IMG/VR virus record: IMGVR_UViG_2660238215_000014
Span: 1-10,904 of that record
Length of the DNA: 10,904 nt
Strand: one strand, 5' to 3'
Source of the DNA: a virus
Lineage: Duplodnaviria; Heunggongvirae; Uroviricota; Caudoviricetes
Part shown: piece after piece, positions 1 to 10,904 of the stretch
Layout: each line of letters opens with the position of its first letter
How positions within the stretch are numbered: the stretch's first letter is position 1
Notes under the pieces: generated by a model
Seen by the model: the letters and a program-made list of their open reading frames with translations, nothing else
Told to the model about the DNA's origin: nothing
Database searches by the model: none
Translations under genes and position numbers: made by a program

Positions 1-78
1 CCACCAGTATAAGTTATTGATATATAGAAAAATAAAAATTTTTAGTGTCGAATCTGGTTGTTTTTTGTTCATCACTGG
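1..78. repeat. Copy A of a 78-bp imperfect direct repeat (copy B at 8446-8523; 72/78 identical), located 30-108 bp upstream of the terS start
   Basis: Base-by-base alignment of 1-78 with 8446-8523 gives 6 mismatches (positions 7, 14, 26, 29, 30, 55 of the repeat); longest exact blocks are 24 and 23 bp. Contains the 10-bp palindrome AAAAATTTTT (34-43) and TGTTCAtC (66-73), one mismatch from the origin octamer. The window starts inside or at the edge of this repeat, so its leftward extent is unknown. Confidence 0.85.
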
Positions 79-106
79 TGTGTGTTTACATAATTTTCAG
101 GGGGAG
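65..106 (+). promoter_or_regulatory. Putative sigma70-type promoter and ribosome binding site for terS
   Basis: -35-like TTGTTC (65-70), 18-bp spacer, -10-like CATAAT (89-94), Shine-Dalgarno GGGGGAG (100-106) just before ATG 109. Pattern match only; the -10 lies outside the repeated 78 bp and is not conserved in copy B. Confidence 0.3.
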
Positions 107-108
107 TT

Positions 109-585
109 ATGGATCGTGAATTAAAAAATCTGCATCTGAATATTTCCCAACTGGCCGCATTATCCGGTGCTCATCGACAGACTGTTGCGGCTCGGGTAAA
201 AAACATAAGCCCAGCCGGTGGTCATGAGAGCAATCTCAAACTGTACCGACTGACAGATATCCTTGCCGAGCTGATGAAAGCTCCTCTGCCTGTAGATAAC
301 GAGGAAATGGATCCTCATGCGCGTAAAGCATGGTACCAGTCAGAACGTGACCGACTGAAATTTGAGCAGGAAACTGGTCAGCTTGTGCCAGTCAGTGATG
401 TCAGGCGGTCCTTTTCTGTCGTGGTGAAAGCGATAGTTCAGGTACTGGAAACCTGGCCTGACCGGCTGGAGAGGGACAGGGGGTGGACCGCATCACAACT
501 GAATGAAGTACAGATTGTGGTTGATGAGATCCGCGACACACTGGAAAAGGCAGTCATTGACTGTTGTGATGAGGCCGATATGTGA
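109..585 (+). CDS. terS: Phage terminase small subunit (Nu1-like, N-terminal helix-turn-helix DNA-binding domain)
   Basis: 158-aa ORF with good RBS; N-terminal motif LNISQLAALSGAHRQTVAARV resembles the winged-HTH of small terminases; its stop overlaps the start of the gpA-type large terminase ORF (GTGA at 582-585), the classic terS-terL coupling. Confidence 0.65.
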   Translation: MDRELKNLHLNISQLAALSGAHRQTVAARVKNISPAGGHESNLKLYRLTDILAELMKAPLPVDNEEMDPHARKAWYQSERDRLKFEQETGQLVPVSDVRRSFSVVVKAIVQVLETWPDRLERDRGWTASQLNEVQIVVDEIRDTLEKAVIDCCDEADM

Positions 586-1589
586 ATCAGGTGAACGAGA
601 GCCATAGCCGCGCATCCGATATCTGGCGCGAAGTGGCCTCGCTGTTTCGCCCACCCAGCCGGTTACCAGTAGCGGAAGCCATCAGGCGTTATATGCGGGT
701 TCCACGGGGAGCCAATACTTCCGGTCCGTGGGAGTCATCGCTGACGCCCTATATGATTGACCCCATTAATACATTATCAGCCCGTGAATATGACGCGGTG
801 GTGTTTGTGGGACCTGCGCGAACCGGGAAAACCGAAGGGCTGATTGATGGCTGGATTGTGTACGGCATCATCTGTGATCCGGCGGATATGCTGGTGGTGC
901 AGATGACTGAGACGAAGGCGCGTGAGCATTCCAGAACGCGTCTTTCCAGGACGTTTCGCCACAGTCCGGAGGTCAGCAAGCGCCTCAGTCCTTCCCGTAA
1001 TGACAACAACGTCCACGATAAAATGTTTCTTGACGGCTCCTTCCTGAAGATTGGCTGGCCGTCGATCACCGTCTTTTCCTCTTCGGATTACCGTCGTGTG
1101 GCGCTGACGGATTATGACCGTTTCCCTGAAAACGTGGACGGGGAAGGGGATGCCTTCACGCTGGCCTCAAAGCGTACCACCACCTTTATGTCCTCGGGGA
1201 TGACCCTGGTCGAGAGTTCACCGGGGCGGGATATCACCGATACCAAATGGCGTTGTGGTGGCGCACATGAGGCACCGCCAACAACGGGGATCCTGTCACT
1301 GTATAACCGGGGAGACCGCCGCCGGTGGTACTGGCCGTGTCCGCACTGCGGGGAATATTTTCAGCCGGTGATGGATAACATGACCGGATACCGGAATAAC
1401 CCGGATTTTGTGGCTGCCGGTCAGGCTGCCCGTCTGATGTGTCCGCATTGTCGCGGGCTGATTGCCCCTGAGCAGAAACGCGAACTGAATAACCAGGGGA
1501 TCTGGCTTCGTGAAGGTGAACGGGCGGCGGCGGACGGCAGTATCACCGGAACGCCACGAAACTCCCGGATTGCGTCATTTTGGATGTAG
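582..1589 (+). pseudogene. terL: Large terminase, lambda gpA family, N-terminal fragment only (335 aa versus about 640 aa expected)
   Basis: Walker A GPARTGKT; paired CxxC motifs (CPHCGEYF ... CPHCRGL) as in lambda gpA from memory; gpA-like similarity continues to the last residues (GIWLREG ... ASFWM), then a TAG stop at 1587-1589 coincides with a sharp shift to AT-rich non-coding DNA. No continuation in any frame. Confidence 0.8.
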
Positions 1590-1750
1590 GGTACATTTCT
1601 TACCTGTTTGTATGTTCTGGTGTCGATTCATAGTCTTTTCAATGAGTTGTGATTTTATGAGTTTCCTCTCTTTGCTTGATAATGAGTTAGTTTATCGCTT
1701 GTTATTGGCTTGAATGGACTACATGACGGACTAAAAAATGAGGGCGATAG

Positions 1751-2989
1751 ATGTCGGTAAAGCCATTAACCGTGACTGAAGTTAAGGGGATGAAACCACG
1801 TGAAAAGGACTATGCCGTTTATGATGGGTTCGGTTTATTGCTGAATGTGAGTAAAGCCGGTGGGAAAGTGTGGCGTTTCCGTTATAGCCATCCGATAACG
1901 AAGAAACGGCAGACATACACGATAGGACGTTTTCCTGAATTCTCACTCGCGGAAGCACGGGAAGTACGTGATGAACTTCGGCGAATGATTGCACGTGGAG
2001 TTGATCCAGTGACGGAGAAGAAAAATCGTAAAATTGAGATGTCACTAAAAAATCTACAGACATTTGAAGCTGTTGCTAATGCATGGTTCGCTTTTAAAAA
2101 GGGATCTGAATTGCGGAAACCTACGCTGTATAATATCGAATATGAAGTATACAAATATCTTGTTCCTTTCTTTGGTAAGTACAGTATAGAAAAAATTACA
2201 GCACCAGTAGCTATTAATGCTCTGGATGCCGTATCCGATAAGAATGCGTTGCAAAAAAAATTAATATCAAGATTAAATGAAATTATGAATTATGCTGTAA
2301 ATTGTGGAGCATTGAAAGCAAATCCATTACTTAAGATAAAGACTGCATTCACAGGAAAGAAAAATAAATCATTAGCAGCACTACCTGTTGAAAGATTGCC
2401 TGAATTTCTGAGCTGGTGGGATAGTGTGCCTCATACCTATCAAATAGCTCATAATGCACTTTTATTCCAGATATTGACAATGGTTAGGCCAGGTGAGGCG
2501 ATTAAAGCAGAGTGGTCAGAGATTGATTTTGATTCTGGCTTGTGGATTATCCCCGCGCATAAAATGAAATGCCATCGTGAACATGTTGTTCCCTTGTCAT
2601 CACAGGCTATTAGTATCCTCAGAACAATGCAGGAAATAAAAAGAGGGCGTTATGTGTTTTTTTCCTCCAGAACAAAAGATGCGCCTATGGGGAGGAATAC
2701 TATCAAGACCCCAATTGCTGCCAGCAAGTTCAAAGGGATTGTAACGTTACATGGTTTTCGTTCAATGTGGAGTACGCTTTTAAATGAGGAGGGATTTAAC
2801 CCCGATGTAATCGAGGCTGCATTGGCGCATAAAAGTGGTGATAAAATAAGAGATATTTATAATAGAACTATTTATCTAGAACAGCGTAAGATCATGATGC
2901 AATGGGTCGGTGATTTTTTTGATGATGCGAGAAAAGGGGTAATTAATAGATCCGGTGGTATGAAAGGTTTAAGAGTAGTAAATGGTTGA
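1751..2989 (+). CDS. int: Tyrosine site-specific integrase, P4-like family (N-terminal arm-binding domain plus catalytic domain)
   Basis: 412 aa; N-terminus GLLLNVSKAGGKVWRFRYSHP...GRFPEFSLAEAREVRDEL matches the P4-type integrase arm-binding domain; C-terminal catalytic signature R (MVRPGEA), HGFRSMWST, LAHKSGDKIRDIYNRTIY with terminal Tyr. RBS GAGGG 6 nt upstream. Gene is markedly more AT-rich than its neighbours. Confidence 0.9.
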   Translation: MSVKPLTVTEVKGMKPREKDYAVYDGFGLLLNVSKAGGKVWRFRYSHPITKKRQTYTIGRFPEFSLAEAREVRDELRRMIARGVDPVTEKKNRKIEMSLKNLQTFEAVANAWFAFKKGSELRKPTLYNIEYEVYKYLVPFFGKYSIEKITAPVAINALDAVSDKNALQKKLISRLNEIMNYAVNCGALKANPLLKIKTAFTGKKNKSLAALPVERLPEFLSWWDSVPHTYQIAHNALLFQILTMVRPGEAIKAEWSEIDFDSGLWIIPAHKMKCHREHVVPLSSQAISILRTMQEIKRGRYVFFSSRTKDAPMGRNTIKTPIAASKFKGIVTLHGFRSMWSTLLNEEGFNPDVIEAALAHKSGDKIRDIYNRTIYLEQRKIMMQWVGDFFDDARKGVINRSGGMKGLRVVNG

Positions 2990-3002
2990 GGAGGTTCAGC
3001 AA

Positions 3003-3206
3003 ATGAATACCAATGAAGATATTTTATTTACTAAAGACGTAATGAAAATCTTGCGATATGGAGCAATGAGTGCATTCATCAATTTCTGGAAAGATGAGAA
3101 TAATGGTTTTCCTCAGCCGTTCAGAATTGGACGACGACATACCTGGCACCGTAGAGATGTAGAAGCATGGTTAGATAAACAACGAGAACAGGCCAATCCC
3201 CACTAA
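3003..3206 (+). CDS. alpA: AlpA/Vis-like small HTH transcriptional regulator or excisionase
   Basis: The track ORF starts at 2982, but a strong SD GAGGAGG (2988-2994) sits 8 nt before the in-frame ATG at 3003, giving 67 aa. Motif FPQPFRIGRRHTWHRRDVEAWL fits the AlpA family (FP-P-ilG-r---W---dV--Wl). Immediately downstream of int in the same orientation, as in P4 (vis) and Gram-negative PICIs. Confidence 0.75.
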   Translation: MNTNEDILFTKDVMKILRYGAMSAFINFWKDENNGFPQPFRIGRRHTWHRRDVEAWLDKQREQANPH

Positions 3207-3220
3207 TAATATCTTTCATA

Positions 3221-3245
3221 CCCCGCGTGCAATGCGGGGTTTTTT
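3221..3245 (+). terminator. Rho-independent terminator after int-alpA
   Basis: Stem CCCCGC (3221-3226), loop GTGCAAT, stem GCGGGG (3234-3239), followed by TTTTTT (3240-3245). Confidence 0.7.
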
Positions 3246-3265
3246 GTATGTGAGGTAAAAAAGAA

Positions 3266-3847
3266 ATGAATAAAAATATTGCCGTGACGGGCAAGGGTGA
3301 CGCACGTCATGTAAAAAAATTCTGTGATATTCGTGATCTGGTCGTTCTGCGCTTTGATAGTGTGAACGTTCGCGTGGTGTATCTGAACGGCGATCCGTGG
3401 TTTGTTGCAAAGGATGTTTGTGTTGCTCTGGAAATAAGTAACTCACGCGATGCTCTAAAAGCACTAGATGCGGATGAAAAGAAAACCGTCGCTTTAAGCT
3501 ACGGTATTCGAGGAAATCCAAATCATAGCCTCATTTCTGAATCCGGTTTTTACAAGCTGATCGCCAGAAGTCGGAAAGCTGTTACTCCTGGCACGTTCGC
3601 CCATCGTTTCAGTAACTGGGTATTCAGGAATGTGATACCGGGTATCAGAAAAACGGGGGCTTATGGTATCCCGTGGGGTGTAGTACAGGATTTTTCCCGC
3701 CGCAAAGAGCAATACCAGATAAGTGCCAGCGAGAAGGGGAGGGCGCTACAGGCATGTAAGCGCAAAAAACGTGAACTGGAGGAAGAAGAAAAAAGGCTGA
3801 TACGTGAATATCAGCCTGAGTTTTACTTTGGCAACCGCATTCAGTGA
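3266..3847 (+). CDS. Bro-N domain protein (antirepressor-like N-terminal domain, short coiled-coil-like C-terminus, no obvious KilA-C domain)
   Basis: 193 aa; hallmark Bro-N motifs VRVVYLNGDPWFVAKDVCVALEI ... SGFYKLIARSRKAVTPGTFAHRFSNWVFRNVIPGIRKTGAYG; SD GAGG 10 nt upstream of ATG 3266; C-terminal 50 aa rich in K/R/E. Confidence 0.8.
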   Translation: MNKNIAVTGKGDARHVKKFCDIRDLVVLRFDSVNVRVVYLNGDPWFVAKDVCVALEISNSRDALKALDADEKKTVALSYGIRGNPNHSLISESGFYKLIARSRKAVTPGTFAHRFSNWVFRNVIPGIRKTGAYGIPWGVVQDFSRRKEQYQISASEKGRALQACKRKKRELEEEEKRLIREYQPEFYFGNRIQ

Positions 3848-3879
3848 CAAAACAAAGGCGACCCGGATCAGAGGTCGCC
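3847..3879 (-). terminator. Putative rho-independent terminator for the minus-strand RHH gene
   Basis: Inverted repeat GGCGACC (3857-3863) / GGTCGCC (3873-3879) with 9-nt loop; on the minus strand the hairpin is followed by TTTGTTTTGT (complement of 3847-3856). Confidence 0.5.
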
Positions 3880-3970
3880 AATGGGAAAACACTAAACATA
3901 AGCCCAAACATCATAGCGATTTGTTGGCTGGTGGGCAATGTGATCAGTGTGCTGGCTTGCTGGTGGATTG

Positions 3971-4153
3971 TCAGCCTTTTGGTTCTATGCCTTCTTTGCG
4001 TAGCTTGTCACGACAGGCATTTTTAACCCATGAACTGAAATTACCAGGCCCAGCAACTTCGTTAATTTGTTGCAACAATGTGTCTTCGAAGCGGATGTTT
4101 TTCTTTGTGCTGCCGGAGCGATCAAATTTTGGTTTCTCATTTTTTTCTTGCAT
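3971..4153 (-). CDS. Small ribbon-helix-helix (Arc/CopG-like) DNA-binding protein; candidate repressor of the element
   Basis: 60 aa; segment KKNIRFEDTLLQQINEVAGPGNFSSWVKNACRDKL has the beta-strand / helix / G-x-S / helix pattern of RHH proteins. It is the only convincing minus-strand gene, divergent from the rightward operon, with palindromic operators at its 5' side and a hairpin terminator at its 3' side. Confidence 0.5.
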   Translation of the reverse strand: MQEKNEKPKFDRSGSTKKNIRFEDTLLQQINEVAGPGNFSSWVKNACRDKLRKEGIEPKG

Positions 4154-4198
4154 TGGTACGTACCACCATTATAAACTGAAACCCAATGGTACGTACCA
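4154..4198. promoter_or_regulatory. Two copies of the perfect 12-bp palindrome TGGTACGTACCA (4154-4165 and 4187-4198) bracketing a -10-like TATAAA; putative operator pair in the divergent promoter region
   Basis: Both copies read directly; 33 bp centre to centre (about 3 helical turns). Rightward -35-like TTGCAT (4148-4153) and -10-like TATAAA (4170-4175); on the minus strand a perfect TATAAT lies between the palindromes (complement of 4167-4172). Confidence 0.6.
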
Positions 4199-4298
4199 TG
4201 TTGAAGATACGCAACCATTAAATACAGCGAAGCCCCGCAGTGGTGGAACACTCGCAGGGCTTCTAACCACCAACGATAGCAAGATTATCGAGGTAGCT

Positions 4299-4490
4299 AT
4301 GTTAAATCATACCACACACCCGCAAGGGCGGGACTTGCACAACCTGAATAAATTCACCTGGCGTTTTATCGCCCTGAGCACGGCACAACCGCGCGTGATT
4401 ACCATTGAGGCCACCAGCGAACAGGAAGCACGCCAGCAATCTCCTGATGGCTGCGTGATGGTATTCGCTGCCCGTATTCGTCAGGGGTAA
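4299..4490 (+). CDS. Small hypothetical protein (63 aa), first gene of the rightward operon; function unknown
   Basis: ATG 4299 preceded by GAGG (4289-4292); corresponds to the C-terminal in-frame part of track ORF 3804-4490, whose upstream part looks non-coding. I have a vague, unverifiable recollection of Icd-like annotations on similar small proteins. Confidence 0.45.
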   Translation: MLNHTTHPQGRDLHNLNKFTWRFIALSTAQPRVITIEATSEQEARQQSPDGCVMVFAARIRQG

Positions 4491-4493
4491 GTC

Positions 4494-4859
4494 ATGCATA
4501 ACCTGTCAATTTCTGACCTTAACTGCATTCAGTTTGACGAGAAATTTACCGGGCAGCTACTGGTCCATGTGGAGAACGGGCGCATAGTGCGTAATTACCA
4601 CCTGCCGGATGGTGCAATTGCCGGAAGCGTTGAAGCATTGCTGGAACTGGCAGAACGTGCGCGACTGATTAAGCCGTTAACGAACCATCACGATGATGAT
4701 CTGCATTTTACCGGACGCATGGTGAGTCACTACGAAAACGGCGTCGAGGTATCCCGCGAACGGCTGCGTGATGATTGCTGTTTCGGCACACTGCCGGAAT
4801 TTATCGAGTTGCTGACCAGTTGCGGTTATCAGGTCATTCAGGGGGGTAAACATGCGTGA
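4494..4859 (+). CDS. Hypothetical protein (121 aa) made of two tandem copies of a roughly 50-aa domain (FTG-x-LV-x3-ENG ... L-x-ELL)
   Basis: SD AGGGG 7 nt upstream. Internal duplication visible in the translation: FTGQLLVHVENGRIVRNYHLPDGAIAGSVEALLELAERA versus FTGRMVSHYENGVEVSRERLRDDCCFGTLPEFIELLTSC. Confidence 0.6.
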   Translation: MHNLSISDLNCIQFDEKFTGQLLVHVENGRIVRNYHLPDGAIAGSVEALLELAERARLIKPLTNHHDDDLHFTGRMVSHYENGVEVSRERLRDDCCFGTLPEFIELLTSCGYQVIQGGKHA

Positions 4860-5085
4860 TGATCGTTTTAATTCCCTGAAACGGGAATTTGATGGCGCAC
4901 AGGAAGATGCAGCGGGCGCATTGTTGAGCGTTGCTGACATGATGAAAGCTGCATATTTTCTTATCAATACCAGTGGCTACAAGTCAGAGGGTGAAATGAT
5001 TCTTAGTATTGCGTCGGACTATGCGGAATATGTGGCAGAGACGCGTTACAGAAGAAAATTCACGGAGGATGTAAGCCATGCATAA
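4852..5085 (+). CDS. Hypothetical protein (77 aa)
   Basis: ATG overlaps the end of the previous gene by 8 nt; SD GGGGGG upstream; acidic, helical-looking sequence, no recognisable motif. Confidence 0.5.
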   Translation: MRDDRFNSLKREFDGAQEDAAGALLSVADMMKAAYFLINTSGYKSEGEMILSIASDYAEYVAETRYRRKFTEDVSHA

Positions 5086-5279
5086 TCATGAAGCGCATGT
5101 ACCCGTAGTGCTTAATGTGCCAGATGATTTCACCGGACGCGTACTGGTTTACCTGGATAAAGGGAAAGTGAAATCACAATGCCGACTGAAAAGTAATGAG
5201 ATTGTTGGTTCTCCTGAATTTTTTTTCTGAACTTTGTATTCGTGCGGAAATAAAACCGGAACTGCTGACAGGAAAATAA
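5078..5279 (+). pseudogene. Third copy of the FTG domain (paralog of 4494-4859), interrupted by a frameshift at a T8 homopolymer (5219-5226)
   Basis: ATG 5078 overlaps the previous stop (ATGCATAA). Frame 1 gives MHNHEAHVPVVLNVPDDFTGRVLVYLDKGKVKSQCRLKSNEIVGSPEFFF* (stop 5228-5230); the +1 frame continues SELCIRAEIKPELLTGK* (stop 5277-5279), which aligns with the ELAERARLIKPL part of the paralog. Not in the ORF track because each piece is under 60 aa. Confidence 0.5.
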
Positions 5280-5283
5280 AACC

Positions 5284-5574
5284 ATGAAAAAGAAAAATTC
5301 TGGCTTTACTGCCAGCGGCCTCTCTCGGCCTGAAATCCGCCCCGGTGATATTTTCCGGGACACCAGACGCGGTGGACGGGTGGTTATTCGTCACGTTACG
5401 CCAGGCAATATCACCTACCGCCGTGAGGCTTACGAATATGACTGCGTAATGCCGCGCCGTCAGTTTGATCGTGATTTTATTCTGGTGGAAAACAAACAAC
5501 AGGCAGTGGCGAGACGTGCAGCCACGAATATTAAAAAAATCCGGGCAATGTTGGTTGCGGGAGGTAAGAAGTGA
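5284..5574 (+). CDS. Hypothetical basic protein (96 aa), immediately upstream of and coupled to pri-rep
   Basis: ATG 5284 after AAAACC; stop overlaps the GTG start of the primase gene (GTGA 5571-5574); K/R-rich, no recognisable motif. Confidence 0.5.
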   Translation: MKKKNSGFTASGLSRPEIRPGDIFRDTRRGGRVVIRHVTPGNITYRREAYEYDCVMPRRQFDRDFILVENKQQAVARRAATNIKKIRAMLVAGGKK

Positions 5575-7370
5575 AAAACGCACCGAGTCTAAAATATCAG
5601 CTGAAGGATAAATTCACTGAGGTAATCATTTTTGCCGGGACGGATGCTTACGCCCATGCTCAACACTGGATTGAAAGTGAAGGACGAAAACACGGCGATA
5701 ACGTGCCTCCTGTTTACCTGGGGCCAAAGCAACTGGCAGACCTGGCGAATATCCGCATTATTGACGAGAAACGCCGTTTTGCGCGTGTCTATATCGCGGG
5801 GGAGATAGAGCCAATCCAGATCAATACTATCGCTGAAAAGCTGGCGCTGGCTGGCGTACAGGAGGCGAAATTATACAAAGGTATCACCGACCAGGAACCG
5901 GAGAACTGGCGCGACTACCTGCAACGGATCCGCGAACAGGCTGAGCACGGGGAAGTTTCAGTGATGAAATTAGCTACAAAAAATAGTGGTCTACCCAAGC
6001 CTGCATTAAATCAGATGGGAGCCAGCCAGAGAGGGGAAGTGTTACTTGAACATTATGGAGGAGCACTGGCGATTCATGCTGACTCTGACACTGTTCACCA
6101 TTACAACGGCGTTGTATGGGAGCCAGTACAGGATAAAGAATTACAGCGAGCTATGGCACAGATTTTCATTGATGCGGAGATCAGCTATTCGCAGAACGCC
6201 ATTAAATCGGCGGTAGATACCATGAAGTTAAGTTTGCCTGTAATGGGGAATACAGCCCGTAACCTGATTGGATTCAGTAACGGTGTTTTTGATACCCGGA
6301 CAGGCGATTTTCGGGAGCATAACAAAAACGACTGGTTGTTAATTGCCAGTGAATTACCTTTCAGCCCACCAGCAGAGGGGGAAACGCTGGCAACACATGC
6401 GCCGAATTTCTGGAAGTGGTTACGCCGTTCGGTGGCTGAGAATGACCGCAAGGCGGATCGCGTACTGGCTGCATTATTCATGGTGCTGGCGAACCGGTAC
6501 GACTGGCAGTTATTCATTGAGGTAACAGGTCCAGGGGGAAGTGGTAAAAGCGTGATGGCGGAGATTTGCACCATGCTGGCGGGTAAGGCCAACACGGTAT
6601 CGGCAAGCATGAAGGCGCTGGAAGATGCCAGGGAACGCGCGTTAGTGGTTGGCTTTTCGCTGATTATCATGCCGGATATGACCCGCTACGCTGGTGATGG
6701 GGCAGGGATTAAGGCTATTACAGGCGGTGACAAGGTGGCAATTGACCCGAAACACAAAGCCCCCTACTCAACGCGTATTCCGGCAGTAGTGCTGGCGGTT
6801 AACAATAACGCCATGTCATTCAGTGACCGCAGCGGGGGGATCTCACGTCGTCGGGTGATATTCAATTTTTCGGAAGTTGTACAGGAGAACGAACGCGATC
6901 CAATGCTGGCGGAAAAAATAGAAGGTGAGCTGGCGGTAGTGATTCGCCATCTGCTTACACGGTTTGCTGACCAGGACGAAGCCAGACGCCTGTTATATGA
7001 GCAGCAGAAATCTGAAGAAGCACTGGCGATAAAGCGAGAGGGGGATTCGCTGGTGGACTTCTGCGGCTATCTCATGGCGTCGGTAATGTGTGATGGCCTG
7101 TTAGTGGGTAATGCTGAAATTGTACCATTCAGCCCACGCAGGTATCTCTATCATGCCTATCTGGCTTATATGCGGGCACATGGGTTTGGTAAACCTGTAA
7201 CACTGACTCGCTTCGGTAAAGATATGCCGGGGGCAATGGCGGAATATGGCAGGGAGTATATGAAACGGAAAACGAAGCACGGTTTGCGTTCAAACGTGAC
7301 ACTGATGGAGGAATCAGAAGACTGGATGCCATCATGTGTATCGGTCACTAATGACGATAGCAAAAATTAA
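5571..7370 (+). CDS. Replication initiator primase/helicase (pri-rep; P4 alpha-like / D5-type SF3 helicase with P-loop)
   Basis: 599 aa, GTG start with SD GGAGGT (5560-5565); Walker A GPGGSGKS near residue 310 with downstream hydrophobic strand and acidic motif (LIIMPDMT); N-terminal region resembles a primase/Toprim-like domain; cognate iteron origin lies immediately 3' of the gene. Confidence 0.8.
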   Translation: MKNAPSLKYQLKDKFTEVIIFAGTDAYAHAQHWIESEGRKHGDNVPPVYLGPKQLADLANIRIIDEKRRFARVYIAGEIEPIQINTIAEKLALAGVQEAKLYKGITDQEPENWRDYLQRIREQAEHGEVSVMKLATKNSGLPKPALNQMGASQRGEVLLEHYGGALAIHADSDTVHHYNGVVWEPVQDKELQRAMAQIFIDAEISYSQNAIKSAVDTMKLSLPVMGNTARNLIGFSNGVFDTRTGDFREHNKNDWLLIASELPFSPPAEGETLATHAPNFWKWLRRSVAENDRKADRVLAALFMVLANRYDWQLFIEVTGPGGSGKSVMAEICTMLAGKANTVSASMKALEDARERALVVGFSLIIMPDMTRYAGDGAGIKAITGGDKVAIDPKHKAPYSTRIPAVVLAVNNNAMSFSDRSGGISRRRVIFNFSEVVQENERDPMLAEKIEGELAVVIRHLLTRFADQDEARRLLYEQQKSEEALAIKREGDSLVDFCGYLMASVMCDGLLVGNAEIVPFSPRRYLYHAYLAYMRAHGFGKPVTLTRFGKDMPGAMAEYGREYMKRKTKHGLRSNVTLMEESEDWMPSCVSVTNDDSKN

Positions 7371-7382
7371 ACTTATGGAATA

Positions 7383-7613
7383 ACTGTTCACCACTGTTCA
7401 CCCTGTCATAAATATCTTTTATATCAGTATATTATAGGGTGAACAGTTATTTATTAACTGTTCACCAAACTATTCACTGTTCACCTTTTTGATTGTTTAT
7501 TGAGCTTCAAGGGTGAACAGTGGTGAACAGTTGGTGAATAGTTTTTGTGAAACTGTTCACCAATTAACATTATGAATTAAAAGATAAAATATCAAAAGGT
7601 GAACAGGTGAAGG
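7383..7613. repeat. Replication origin: array of TGTTCACC iterons in both orientations with AT-rich spacers
   Basis: Perfect forward copies at 7385-7392, 7395-7402, 7459-7466, 7478-7485, 7554-7561; perfect inverted copies (GGTGAACA) at 7438-7445, 7512-7519, 7522-7529, 7598-7605; degenerate copies at 7471-7478, 7533-7540, 7606-7613; AT-rich stretches 7403-7437 and 7562-7597. Confidence 0.85.
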
Positions 7614-7657
7614 GTTAAAACGCAAAAATTTTAATTTACTGCTGTGAGATAAAGCCT

Positions 7658-7903
7658 ATGACAGCGAAGCACACAAAAAAATCACAATCGCACGCCCTTG
7701 ATTTGACGGAACACTGGTTAAGGGTGTCGATAAAAATCATCGACCGCAACGCCGGGGAAGGATATGCGAAAGCACATCCCGAACTAATAATCGCATTCAT
7801 GACCACGGCGGCGGCAAACTTTGCCACGCTGACGGAACGGGAGATTGCCGAAGCGGAACAGGTAACAACCATCAACGTTAAAACCGGAGAGGTGGAATCA
7901 TGA
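7658..7903 (+). CDS. Hypothetical protein (81 aa)
   Basis: ORF downstream of the origin; its stop overlaps the SSB-like start (ATGA 7900-7903), suggesting an operon; no recognisable motif. Confidence 0.4.
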   Translation: MTAKHTKKSQSHALDLTEHWLRVSIKIIDRNAGEGYAKAHPELIIAFMTTAAANFATLTEREIAEAEQVTTINVKTGEVES

Positions 7904-8323
7904 CAGCACAGATAGCCGCTTACGGGCGGCTGGTGGACGACCCGCAGGTAAAACAGACCAGCAAGGGCACACCGATGACGCTGGCGCGTATGGCGGTCCC
8001 CCCTTCCGTGCAGCCAGGCAGATGACGGAACGGCGACGATGTGGTTATCCGTCCTGGCATTTGGCAGACAGGCCGAAGCACTGGAAAGGCACCGCAAGGG
8101 TGAACTCCTGAGCGTGGCGGGTAACATGCAGATCAGCCAGTGGACTGGGCAGAACGGAGAAACGCGGCAGGGCTGGCAGGTTATCGCAGACAGTGTAATC
8201 AGTGCGCGAACGGCGCGACTGGGCGGCAAAAAAGGTCAACAAGGCCAGGCTACTGACGCGCTGAACAGGGCAAAACAACAGGCGGGGAATGATGATCCGT
8301 ACGGGGATAACATACCGTTTTAA
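7900..8323 (+). pseudogene. ssb: Single-stranded DNA-binding (SSB)-like gene split by a frameshift at a C6 run (7998-8003)
   Basis: Frame 1 from ATG 7900: MTAQIAAYGRLVDDPQVKQTSKGTPMTLARMAV..., resembling the SSB N-terminus ([27 protein letters not shown]), stop at 8023-8025. Frame 2 open from 7979 through track ORF 8039-8323: ...WLSVLAFGRQAEALERHRKGELLSVAGNMQISQWTGQNGETRQGWQVIADSV ... DNIPF, resembling the SSB OB-fold core and IPF tail. Confidence 0.6.
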
Positions 8324-8339
8324 GCGACGAGTGACAGAA

Positions 8340-8361
8340 GCCGGAGCAATCCGGCTTTTTT
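8340..8361 (+). terminator. Rho-independent terminator after the SSB-like gene
   Basis: Stem GCCGGA (8340-8345), loop GCAA, stem TCCGGC (8350-8355), then TTTTTT (8356-8361). Confidence 0.75.
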
Positions 8362-8445
8362 ACGGGTCCTCCTGGCGGGGTGGGCCTGAACACGGGGCGA
8401 CGGGCGCGGAAAAAGGCGCATTTTTTGATTTTTATGGCACCATCA

Positions 8446-8523
8446 CCACCACTATAAGCTATTGATATATTGAGGAATAAAAATTTTTAGTGTCGAATCA
8501 GGTTGTTTTTTGTTCATCACTGG
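8446..8523. repeat. Copy B of the 78-bp imperfect direct repeat (copy A at 1-78)
   Basis: See copy A. Weaker homology continues about 25 bp further (TTTACA ... CAGG) with an indel. In copy B the -10-like element of copy A is replaced (CAAAAA in place of CATAAT). Confidence 0.85.
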
Positions 8524-8790
8524 AACGTTCCCGAAAACATTTACAAAAAAACAGGCGCAAAAAAAAGCGCCCCCGATTGCTGTTACCGGAGGCGCTTTTA
8601 CACGACAAAGGAGTTTTTATCGCCAGGATGACGAGTCTTAATATTGCTTCAATGGCAAAAATGCGTCAATGGCTTTGCCTCTCTGAGAATAATCAGAAAA
8701 AACATAATCTGATTTTCAGGTAGAAAATGATTTATCTATTGCTTTTATCGATCAATAATGATGCCCGTTAATCAAAACGGAGGCGGATTT

Positions 8791-8985
8791 ATGCCAGAGA
8801 ACAACACCAGAAAGCCGGATAAAAGTGCCACGGTACACATAGACGCCGGAACTATGGAGAAGATCGAACGCTATCAGCAGTTCATCAAAGATAATCACCC
8901 GGGTATGCCGGTACCCACGAAAGGACAAATCACACGCAGCGCGGTTGAATACTGGTACCAGGCAACGTTAGGAGCCTGGCTATGA
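8791..8985 (+). CDS. Small hypothetical protein (65 aa from ATG 8791; track start 8758), possibly RHH-like, translationally coupled to the protease-capsid gene
   Basis: Strong SD GGAGG (8779-8783) 7 nt before ATG 8791; stop overlaps the capsid ORF start (ATGA 8982-8985); pattern ATVHIDAGTMEKIERYQQFIK ... TKGQITRSAVEYWYQA is compatible with a beta-strand / helix / helix fold. Confidence 0.45.
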   Translation: MPENNTRKPDKSATVHIDAGTMEKIERYQQFIKDNHPGMPVPTKGQITRSAVEYWYQATLGAWL

Positions 8986-10871
8986 AAACATGGTTTTCCA
9001 TTAAGGCTATGGCAGATGTTGTCTATGTGCGTATTTATGACGAGATCGGCGGGTACGGTGTAAAAGCATCGACACTTACTGACGAGATCAACGCGTGCGG
9101 TAATGCGTCTGAAATCCATCTTCGCATCCATTCACCTGGTGGCGACATCTTTGAAGGGCTGGCTATCTATAACGCCCTGAAAAATCATCCGGCAAAGAAA
9201 ATTGTACACATTGAAGGCATGGCGGCTTCTATGGCCTCGTTTATTGCCATGTGTGGCGATCACATCGTTATGCCTGAAAACGCGATGATGATGATACATG
9301 CCCCCCGTGGTGTTACTGCCGGAGTGTCGGGCGACGTTCGCCGCTTTGCTGACCTGATGGACAAGCTGGGCGACACGATGGCGGAAACCTACGCCGGAAG
9401 AACGGGCAGGAGCAAACAGGAGATCACCTCAATGATGGAGGCGGAAACCTGGATGGATGGCAATGAGTGTAAGGCTAACGGCTTCGCAGATGAGGTTATA
9501 CCCGCGATTACAGCAATGGCCCGAATTGAATCAAAACGAATCGGAGATTTTTCAAATATGCCGGAAAAAATTAAAAGCATGATCAGCCAGAAAACTGGCA
9601 GTGGCGAACAGGAACGACTTAACGGAATCCGTGAATTGTTTGGCACCTTCAACGGAAGATATAACGACCTGGCTATAAGTTGTCTTGCGGATTCAGAATG
9701 TAGCGTTGAGAATGCACGCGAACGCCTTTTACTCGCTATGGGTAAAGAATCAACGCCAACAAACAAAACCACCCCCGCAAATCTTTACTACGCGTACACG
9801 GATAACGGCAATATAACCGGCGATGCCATGCGTCAGGGGCTTAATGCGCGTCTTGGTCACGAACGGGCCGAACGCGGTAATCCTTACGCCATGATGAGCC
9901 TTTTCGATATGGCACAGGCATCATTAACCCATCGTGGTATAAGCACGGGCAGCTACAGCACACGCTCGCAGATAGTAAACGCGGCATTCACCCACAGCAG
10001 CAGCGATTTTACCGATATCCTTGCTGGTGGCGCTGAAAAATCAGTGCTTGCAGGCTGGGAGCACAGCGGCGAAACATTCCGCCAGTGGACGAAAAAAGGT
10101 TCCCTTTCAAACTTCCGGGAAGCCCGCCGCGTTGGTATGAATGGCTTCTCAACGTTAAACAAAGTGCCGGAAGGGGCAGAATATAAATACATCACCACCA
10201 GCGATCGCGGTGAACCCATCGCGCTGGCTACTTACGGGAATATTTTCAGTATTACCCGCCAGGCGATAATCAATGATGACCTTGATCAGTTATCAACGGT
10301 GCCAATGGCTATGGGCCGTGCAGCATCAAGAACGGTGGGAAATCTGGTTAATCTGGTGCTTACAGGCAACGTAAAACTTTCTGACGGAATAACGCTGTTT
10401 GACAAAAAACACAGCAACCTGATTGAAACAGGACTGACAACACCGGGACTTAGTGCAGCACGTCACCTGATGCGCACACAGAAGGACAAAAATGGCGAAG
10501 TGCTGAATATTGCGCCTAAATTCCTTTTAGTTCCGGCAGCACTGGAAGATCGCGCGTTGCAGATGATTAACTCAACCGCACCTTTCGGGGCTGATAAAAA
10601 CAGCGGGATCTTTAACCCGTATCACAAGCTACTTGATATCATCGTCGATCCCCGCCTTGATGATATCAGCGAAAAACAATGGTACATGCTTTCCGCACAG
10701 GGAACGGACACAATCGAGGTGGCTTATCTTGATGGCAATGACGAGCCTTACCTTGAACAGCAGGAAGGTTTTATCGTTGACGGCGTGGCCTGGAAAGTCC
10801 GTATTGATGCAGGTGTGGCAGCTCTGGATTATCGCGGTATGGTCAAATCAGGCGGGACAGATTCACTATGA
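8982..10871 (+). CDS. Prohead serine protease (ClpP/S14-like) fused to an HK97-fold major capsid protein
   Basis: 629 aa; N-terminal region has ClpP-like signatures (HSPGGDIFEGLAIYNAL, catalytic Ser context GMAASMASF, His context MMMIHAP); the C-terminal 350 aa or so resemble phage major capsid proteins; followed directly by a strong terminator, typical of a highly expressed capsid gene. Confidence 0.8.
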   Translation: MKTWFSIKAMADVVYVRIYDEIGGYGVKASTLTDEINACGNASEIHLRIHSPGGDIFEGLAIYNALKNHPAKKIVHIEGMAASMASFIAMCGDHIVMPENAMMMIHAPRGVTAGVSGDVRRFADLMDKLGDTMAETYAGRTGRSKQEITSMMEAETWMDGNECKANGFADEVIPAITAMARIESKRIGDFSNMPEKIKSMISQKTGSGEQERLNGIRELFGTFNGRYNDLAISCLADSECSVENARERLLLAMGKESTPTNKTTPANLYYAYTDNGNITGDAMRQGLNARLGHERAERGNPYAMMSLFDMAQASLTHRGISTGSYSTRSQIVNAAFTHSSSDFTDILAGGAEKSVLAGWEHSGETFRQWTKKGSLSNFREARRVGMNGFSTLNKVPEGAEYKYITTSDRGEPIALATYGNIFSITRQAIINDDLDQLSTVPMAMGRAASRTVGNLVNLVLTGNVKLSDGITLFDKKHSNLIETGLTTPGLSAARHLMRTQKDKNGEVLNIAPKFLLVPAALEDRALQMINSTAPFGADKNSGIFNPYHKLLDIIVDPRLDDISEKQWYMLSAQGTDTIEVAYLDGNDEPYLEQQEGFIVDGVAWKVRIDAGVAALDYRGMVKSGGTDSL

Positions 10872-10877
10872 CAACAA

Positions 10878-10899
10878 GGCGGCACCAGCCGCCTTTTTT
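10878..10899 (+). terminator. Rho-independent terminator after the capsid gene
   Basis: Stem GGCGGC (10878-10883), loop ACCA, stem GCCGCC (10888-10893), then TTTTTT (10894-10899). Confidence 0.75.
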
Positions 10900-10904
10900 G
10901 CGGG

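Follow-up and report, generated by a model that had tools for sequence, protein, structure and literature searches.

The gene bro (3266..3847, plus strand) of a 10,904-nucleotide stretch of caudoviricete DNA (IMG/VR record IMGVR_UViG_2660238215_000014, positions 1 to 10,904; the whole stretch is called the window below) encodes an intact 193-residue Bro-N protein that is under purifying selection and is carried as an optional cassette behind a conserved terminator. It belongs to a satellite, a phage-inducible chromosomal island (PICI) that is embedded in, and co-oriented with, the large terminase gene (terL) of a lambdoid Escherichia coli prophage. We give roughly even chances to the reading that bro encodes a regulatory DNA-binding protein of the 'Bro zone' of such satellites, and the fold of the protein together with its setting suggests a DNA-binding regulator switched on by the helper phage more than an antirepressor.

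The Bro protein and its family

The reading frame opens with an ATG codon, with a GAGG motif 10 nt upstream. As evidenced by the Pfam search, residues 34-125 match Bro-N (PF02498) over the full profile (positions 1-96; E 9.4e-19, 68.3 bits against a cut-off of 25.6 bits), while no second family is found in the protein at E <= 0.01 and the last 68 residues on their own yield no match even at E <= 10. The ANT/KilAC domain (PF03374), present in the relatives P0155 and P0145, is absent at the same two thresholds from the whole protein and from the tail, respectively. A preliminary description of the gene had called it a Bro-N protein without a KilA-C partner, and this is correct, because PF02498 is the only match and the tail has none; its placement in a satellite, after the integrase and alpA genes (int-alpA) and before a gene that it took for RHH-like, here a minus-strand YlcI/YnfO gene, is likewise borne out by the gene map. 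The accompanying proposal that the protein is a helper sensor or derepressor did not hold up in the same way, as only database labels speak for that function. One such label is that of phrog_2593, 'anti-repressor', matched at E 1e-84 over profile positions 1-192 of 255; a scan of the protein against NCBIfam gave no match.

All of the more than 100 clusters at >= 89% identity comprise proteins of 193-194 residues, and relatives from other genera measure 185-205 residues. As length is thus conserved both within the clusters and across genera, bro is not a truncated remnant. The median pairwise ratio of nonsynonymous to synonymous substitution rates (dN/dS) among E. coli alleles is 0.19, with block-wise values of 0.02 for residues 93-135 and 0.14 for the tail, so that bro is under purifying selection.

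An alignment of 47 family members, 46-98% identical to the query, divides the protein into distinct blocks. The N-terminal residues 1-23 are variable and basic, and are followed by the Bro-N domain with its winged-helix-like fold (residues 24-135; 3335..3670, plus strand). Within this domain, a helix and beta-hairpin at residues 56-92 occur in at least five discrete variants, independently of the remaining sequence, and residues 93-135 are nearly invariant and highly basic, with eight lysine or arginine residues, no aspartate or glutamate, and an isoelectric point (pI) of 11.9. The C-terminal, family-specific tail (residues 136-193; 3671..3844, plus strand), delimited by the alignment and by the predicted structure, has Y150, A154, S155, G158, L161, Q162, L171, E174, E175, L178, Q183 and P184 as invariant residues. 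An AlphaFold2 model based on the family alignment predicts a long single helix at residues 137-182, with a predicted local distance difference test (pLDDT) score of 77-90, and along this helix L161, C164, K168, L171, E175, L178 and Y182, each hydrophobic or conserved, follow one another at an a/d-like spacing of three to four residues. Judged by this spacing, the tail helix is a possible dimerisation zipper. The mean pLDDT of the model is 69.6, with about 78-85 for most of the Bro-N domain and a drop to 62-64 at residues 71-90; note that prediction from the single sequence gave a pLDDT of 38 and was unusable.

We also considered an identity of the tail with ORF6C or another known domain, and rejected it, as the hhalign alignment with a protein combining Bro-N and ORF6C ends at residue 142 and Pfam offers no match. 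A search with the tail alone returned fragments of the same family and nothing else, and is therefore uninformative with respect to domain swapping.

The modelled Bro-N domain has the KilA-N/APSES-like winged-helix fold of the Bro-N family. Its fold matches are, with their scores, the N-terminal domain of Cydia pomonella granulovirus Orf22 (7.9), the APSES DNA-binding domain of Mbp1 (6.8), the DNA-binding motif of Dachshund (6.3), the N-terminal domain of DdrC (5.8) and Bqt4 (5.3), and Foldseek matched 79 viral Bro-N models at E <= 0.001. Sequence searches of the PDB with the protein and with the family profile found no true relative, the matches to ThreeFoil and TonB being short and at chance level. 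The pI of the protein is 9.9, at the upper end of the family range of 8.4-9.9. In the model, fold and charge favour a nucleic-acid-binding module that is joined to an oligomerisation or partner helix.

The combination of Bro-N domain and tail occurs in Enterobacterales and Aeromonas. In a representative set of 1.84 billion proteins we detected 21,718 Bro-N proteins, and only about three non-fragment clusters at 50% identity aligned with the query past residue 165, into the tail. A search of 50,697 phage genomes gave matches at 46% identity or above to the Bro-N domain only (46-63%, with phiKO2 gp27 at 63%, Kapi1 and phiV10), and a single record covers at least 80% of the protein, at less than 60% identity. 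On the evidence of these searches the family appears to be satellite-restricted, with a tail that is not matched in close phage relatives. Full-length relatives of 52-65% identity were found in Providencia, Serratia, Erwinia, Leclercia, Klebsiella, Raoultella, Yersinia and Proteus. Where a satellite integrase could be detected, which was not the case in L009, L014 and L016, these relatives lie downstream of it in the same orientation, and where the available flank sufficed they lie upstream of genes for DUF4222, primase and single-stranded DNA-binding protein (ssb). The order int/alpA, bro, primase/ssb recurs in more than 80 related loci, and the convergent layout of bro and ylcI is conserved across genera (L012, L017, L137).

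The elements of the other genera occupy chromosomal sites at tRNA-Ser, tRNA-Arg, tRNA-Gly and tmRNA genes, and in them bro is part of a tight alpA-orf140-bro-DUF4222 string in which stop and start codons overlap. A tie of the family as a whole to embedded satellites was thus rejected, in view of these tRNA and tmRNA sites and of a family member 58% identical to the query in L148; because members from other genera sit at chromosomal sites, the family is a general PICI Bro-zone family that is not bound to embedding. The conserved protein between alpA and bro in these genera has about 131-150 residues, no assigned family and a weak winged-helix hint (L010 7490-7912; L006 7506-7901; L012 7485-7901; L013 7177-7629; L133 3592-4038). 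Its start touches or overlaps the stop codon of alpA, bro begins no more than about 15 nt further on, and the E. coli window lacks this protein.

Terminator, cassette boundaries and helper setting

The satellite is located at positions 1590-10904 of the window and at 12582-24954 of L001, an E. coli O111:H8 locus with 97% identity. Immediately before it, a gpA-type terL fragment (582-1589, plus strand; 335 residues; Pfam GpA_ATPase, E 6e-82) ends abruptly and is annotated in RefSeq as 'incomplete, missing C-terminus'. Directly after the interrupted terL follows the gene of a tyrosine integrase that targets terL (1751-2989, plus strand; Pfam Arm-DNA-bind_3, Phage_int_M and Phage_integrase). In L001 the C-terminal part of terL is found about 10 kb downstream, followed in one orientation by the portal gene, the ClpP-capsid fusion gene of the helper and the tail genes, and an O157:H7 locus has the same terL-interrupting structure. 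The element is thus a PICI of the helper-embedded kind (HE-PICI).

The integrase gene is followed by one for an AlpA-like helix-turn-helix protein (2982-3206, plus strand, with a RefSeq start at 3003; phrog_66, E 1.7e-7, and a weak match to HTH_17). The alpA stop and the bro start are separated by an intrinsic terminator (3220..3249, plus strand). It consists of a 9-bp stem with six GC pairs and a T-run, and no other plus-strand terminator of the window is as strong. Hairpin and T-run are retained before bro in the integrase types that were aligned, namely the gpA-terL type of the window, the portal type and the HNH-terL type, and the stem shows compensatory changes (CCCCGCG/CGCGGGG versus CCCCTC/GAGGGG). 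A simple consensus scan revealed no sigma-70-like plus-strand site in the part of the element that lies upstream of bro. In lambdoid phages, late transcription is resistant to terminators. As bro lies behind a conserved terminator and is co-oriented with the late operon of the helper, expression after derepression of the helper is suggested. On the simplest reading, bro and the genes downstream would be reached mainly by helper-driven read-through, which extends the passive late read-through from helpers into HE-PICIs proposed in PMC10111431.

At a coverage of at least 80%, bro is present in 178 of 5,426 complete E. coli genomes. The spacer of about 116 nt beyond its stop codon (3849-3967) is 80-97% conserved in about 345 further genomes without bro, and in five elements (L002, L004, L146, L147, L149) alpA is followed by the conserved spacer and ylcI, with the slot left empty. 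In L003 the slot is filled by an ORF6N gene, whose product was considered as a relative of Bro and rejected, the two proteins being unrelated on comparison. The upstream junction of the cassette was placed by megablast at 3229-3236, within the terminator after alpA, so that the 3' half of the terminator moves together with bro. Its downstream junction, from an alignment of slots with bro, with ORF6N or empty, is near 3850 and is marked by a minus-strand hairpin and T-run that terminates transcription of ylcI (3857..3879). The YlcI/YnfO gene itself (3971-4153, minus strand; 60 residues; Pfam DUF3950, NCBIfam YlcI_YnfO_N) is convergent with bro and divergent from the operon of the icd-like and primase genes, and is kept in elements without bro.

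Within this arrangement bro behaves as a recombining cassette. A contiguous module of terL-targeting int-alpA and bro occurs in 83 genomes, and among the matches listed (60 of 523) no terL-targeting int-alpA was without bro. One and the same int-alpA is combined with alleles of bro that are 83-97% identical, integrases that are only about 24% identical occur with bro alleles that are almost the same, and no link was seen between bro alleles and the terS/terL types of the helpers. One E. coli satellite, L148, carries stacked Rha, AntA/AntB and Bro-N genes at 2467-4451, the Bro-N protein, tail included, being the family member 58% identical to the query mentioned above, and shows that alternative modules can be stacked in one slot.

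Carriers of the close bro subclade were embedded in prophage late genes in all eight elements sampled (L001, L139-L145), five times in a gpA-type terL and once each in a portal gene, an HNH-associated terL and the head-tail region, with at least four integrase/site types among them. Co-oriented embedding recurs in L139 and L143-L145 (terL), L140 (portal) and L141 (another terL). All six sampled elements with a related backbone and without the close subclade were chromosomal (L002-L004, L146, L147, L149). This comparison comes from a small and phylogenetically non-independent sample, and a tie between bro and embedding is limited to the sampled members of the close E. coli subclade and does not extend to the wider family.

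Two observations concern the downstream edge of the cassette. In the spacer 3849-3967, which extends from the bro stop to the ylcI stop, indels are multiples of three, a 60-residue hydrophobic ORF (open reading frame; 3844-4026, plus strand) has a GTG start overlapping the bro stop codon, and the minus strand forms two hairpins and a terminator (z -1.95); by these sequence features it could be a 3' untranslated region of ylcI, a small RNA or the gene of a small membrane peptide. Inside the 3' end of bro, at 3794-3817, lies a perfect 9-bp inverted repeat, AGGCTGATA-N6-TATCAGCCT, followed by a T-run on the minus strand, which would serve as a second terminator or as a binding site that shields bro from antisense transcription from the side of ylcI.

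Regulator, antirepressor or accessory gene

In the reading we favour, bro would be made mainly on terminator-resistant or high-level transcription arriving from upstream, since it has no recognisable promoter of its own and a strong terminator follows alpA. With the satellite sitting in the helper terL in the same orientation, this transcript could be the antiterminated late transcript of the helper, or else int-alpA transcription boosted by AlpA. The basic winged-helix Bro-N domain would contact DNA, probably as a dimer that the conserved C-terminal helix holds together, the swappable helix and beta-hairpin of residues 56-92 would confer target specificity, and Bro would tune the transcription of helper or satellite genes in the lytic phase. 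The basic pI, the conserved basic block and the modelled fold lend indirect support to DNA binding. There is experimental precedent for such proteins acting other than as antirepressors: the N-domain of AriS controls genes of its own phage (PMC9043618), and CapR of PICI-like elements (PLE) represses the capsid promoter of the helper, as cited in PMC10111431.

Several points weigh against this reading. DNA binding, dimerisation, expression by read-through, the targets and the direction of regulation are steps that we infer. The superfamily of the fold also holds protein-interaction modules (the DHD of Ski), the genuine antirepressors P22 Ant and P1 Ant share its domain network, and the invariant polar residues of the tail could equally form a partner-binding surface. 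Gating by a terminator is not family-wide, because in other genera bro occurs without a terminator upstream, and the missing promoter counts for little, because the crude scan found fewer sites than expected by chance.

A more far-reaching version, to which we assign a low probability, is that terminator-gated bro yields a sequence-specific DNA-binding dimer that reprograms helper transcription and is expressed only on antiterminated late read-through from the helper. Capsid and other late genes of the helper might then be damped in favour of the ClpP-capsid fusion of the satellite, or co-resident prophages might be switched on so as to provide functions in trans, and the swappable wing segment would fit Bro to particular helpers. 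If true, this would be a cis-wired feedback regulator from satellite to helper, a mechanism not yet shown for any PICI.

The strongest competitor, unlikely in our view, is that Bro is an antirepressor. It would bind and inactivate a repressor of the CI type, either that of the helper or one from another lambdoid prophage resident in the cell, and thereby cause induction independently of SOS. In the systems to which this idea appeals, P4 epsilon acts on P2 and P22 Ant acts on C2. Helper derepression by satellites is thus known from P4 epsilon, P22 Ant and P1 Ant fall into the same domain network as Bro, the conserved tail could bind a repressor, and a satellite entering a new lysogen would gain from inducing the resident helper. 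PHROG and NCBI names also read 'anti-repressor', and the Bro-N domain is 46-63% identical to Ant-labelled proteins of phiKO2 (gp27), Kapi1 and phiV10, but such database labels are transitive, and the antirepressor idea rests on this annotation and on the analogy to P4 epsilon. Pfam detects no homology of Bro to P4 epsilon (family Derepression, PF25738), P22_AR_N/C, AntA or ANT domains, and the KilAC domain, to which the SOS-modulating (inhibitory) activity of AriS was mapped (PMC9043618), is absent. Both the fold and the charge of Bro are typical of DNA binders, and its best-conserved block has eight basic and no acidic residues. In the embedded state, terminator and late-operon position would furthermore lead to production only after the helper is already derepressed, and the alleles of bro do not follow the terS/terL types of the helpers.

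That Bro is instead the product of an accessory conflict gene, acting on other phages or co-resident prophages and not on helper and satellite, for example by exclusion of competitors or by cross-induction of further lambdoid prophages in polylysogenic Shiga toxin-producing E. coli (STEC) that would supply intact terminase in trans, seems improbable to us. Such a role would suit a cassette that is optional, recombines, has sharp boundaries and lies in a variable slot, the exchange of alleles between and within integrase backgrounds, the discrete, specificity-like variants of residues 56-92 and the polylysogeny of the hosts. However, the defence hidden Markov models of PADLOC-DB matched no family at E <= 0.01 for bro and its neighbours, selection is purifying overall and not diversifying, bro is part of the core alpA operon in other genera, and the terL-targeting int-alpA was never without bro among the 60 of 523 matches listed.

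Very improbable is a role as a self-derepressor of the satellite, antagonising the YlcI/YnfO-like product or another repressor in order to open the icd-primase operon. The location of bro, with the activator gene alpA on one side and the divergent ylcI/icd region on the other, and the convergence of bro and ylcI across genera would be in line with it, but YlcI is itself only a putative repressor, AlpA is the known master regulator in Gram-negative PICIs (PMC11773190), and at least six E. coli satellites with the ylcI-icd-DUF4222-primase backbone have an empty slot or ORF6N in place of bro. Because the same backbone occurs without it, bro is not obligatory for derepression of the element itself. 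Finally, the notion of a functionless, decaying remnant or chance ORF, for which the shortfall against the 255-position PHROG profile and the split ssb gene of the window might be cited, is effectively refuted by a length conserved over hundreds of clusters and many genera, by the dN/dS values, which reach only 0.14 in the conserved blocks, and by the invariant-rich tail.

The rest of the element and known systems

On the plus strand, the helper sequence in the window begins with a DUF1441 small terminase gene (109-585), and beyond ylcI the satellite carries an Icd-like gene (about 4299-4490), a DUF4222 gene (5284-5574), the gene of a D5-type primase (5571-7370), a split ssb (7900-8323) and a fusion of ClpP protease and major capsid protein (8982-10871). 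As terL is interrupted, the TerL protein of the helper cannot be made before the satellite is excised, which fits published helper-embedded PICIs. YlcI, which the preliminary description had called ribbon-helix-helix-like, has no relative in the PDB by sequence. The Icd-like ORF at 4299-4490 is the end of a stop-free frame of 228 residues (3804-4490) that crosses ylcI in antisense; distant relatives have this long frame as well, and it is probably a by-product of the conservation of ylcI, which leaves the true start of the icd-like gene uncertain. The ssb gene is divided into two ORFs (7900-8025 and 8039-8323), with an extra base in a C-run that lies in a divergent patch, and in L001 it is an intact ORF of 140 residues (19950-20372). 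The ClpP/capsid fusion of the satellite is only about 50% identical to that of the helper, encoded a few kilobases downstream in L001 (26664-28220), and the satellite may assemble capsids of its own and borrow only portal, terminase and tails. A cluster of GTGAACAG / CTGTTCAC repeats at 7455-7544, shortly downstream of the primase gene, resembles an iteron-bearing replication origin as far as its sequence goes; in the Rfam scan this region surfaced solely as a spurious microRNA match. No match to C4 or isrK immunity RNAs was obtained in the whole window at E <= 1, and three matches elsewhere in it were at chance level.

The gene, its position and the type of element have already been catalogued. 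Tommasini, Mageeney and Williams (2023; PMC10111431) published the helper-embedded configuration, divided such elements into four zones (Integration, Bro, Replication and Late), listed Bro-N among the ten swapping Pfam families by which the Bro zone is defined, described C4/isrK-type immunity RNAs in some Bro zones and left the Bro zone without assigned functions. The later literature searched held no functional test of the Bro zone in these elements, and the study of EcCIMP1 mentions a conserved 'antirepressor' whose function was not tested there. What is new here is the satellite-restricted family of Bro-N plus tail, the junctions of the cassette, the conserved terminator, the variants of the 'wing' and a fold of the DNA-binding type. 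Genes of the Bro network fill the same slot in many Gram-negative PICIs, P4-like elements and PLEs, and almost none has been functionally tested. As the E. coli carriers are satellites within lambdoid prophages of the STEC lineages O157:H7, O111 and O145, phage and toxin output as well as satellite spread could change if Bro tunes late transcription of the helper or the induction of prophages. The defined cassette, the conserved upstream terminator, the family-specific tail and the discrete specificity variants provide experimental handles.

Among known systems, the closest counterpart is the Bro zone of Gram-negative PICIs and HE-PICIs in PMC10111431. Bro occupies the same position, after int-alpA and before the replication zone, the element is of the same type, co-oriented in a lambdoid late gene with terminase sites among those catalogued, and domain or segment swapping is common to both. 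The window differs from those zones that contain C4/isrK RNAs in that none was detected, and that paper does not describe the tail family, the boundaries of the optional cassette or the conserved terminator upstream of it. The equivalent slot of P4 holds the eta/'cI' (kil) product, which was rejected as a relative because it belongs to Phage_ASH and not to Bro-N. P4 epsilon, the functional model for the derepressor idea of the preliminary description, is likewise a small protein of a satellite early region; it is matched by PF25738 (E 9e-51), and no protein of the window matches this family.

AriS of a Listeria phage (AntA/B plus KilAC), its relative Lin2418, which carries Bro-N, and Gp07 of the Staphylococcus aureus phage phi11 (Bro-N plus KilA-C) are two-domain regulators whose N-domain can be exchanged. 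Bro-N, one of these exchangeable domains, is homologous to the domain found here, and proteins of the AriS/Gp07 type are likewise encoded in a regulatory region of a temperate element and likewise labelled 'antirepressor'. This N-domain, which is AntA/B in AriS and AntA/B, Bro-N or pRha among its relatives, controls genes of the phage itself (PMC9043618), and growth-inhibitory activity of Gp07 is ascribed to its KilAC domain. These proteins carry a C-terminal KilAC, whereas Bro has an unrelated helical tail of 58 residues instead. More distant are the APSES/KilA-N domain of yeast Mbp1 and the N-domains of baculovirus BRO proteins, which are of eukaryotic or eukaryotic-virus origin, have other partner domains and show 8-13% identity. 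The kind of activity proposed here for Bro is exemplified by PLE CapR of Vibrio cholerae, a satellite protein from the wider Bro/homing-endonuclease network that binds DNA and, according to PMC10111431, represses the capsid operon of ICP1. CapR derives from an endonuclease of the T5orf172/GIY-YIG type and acts on a virulent helper, whereas Bro combines a Bro-N domain with a helix and faces a helper that is a prophage.

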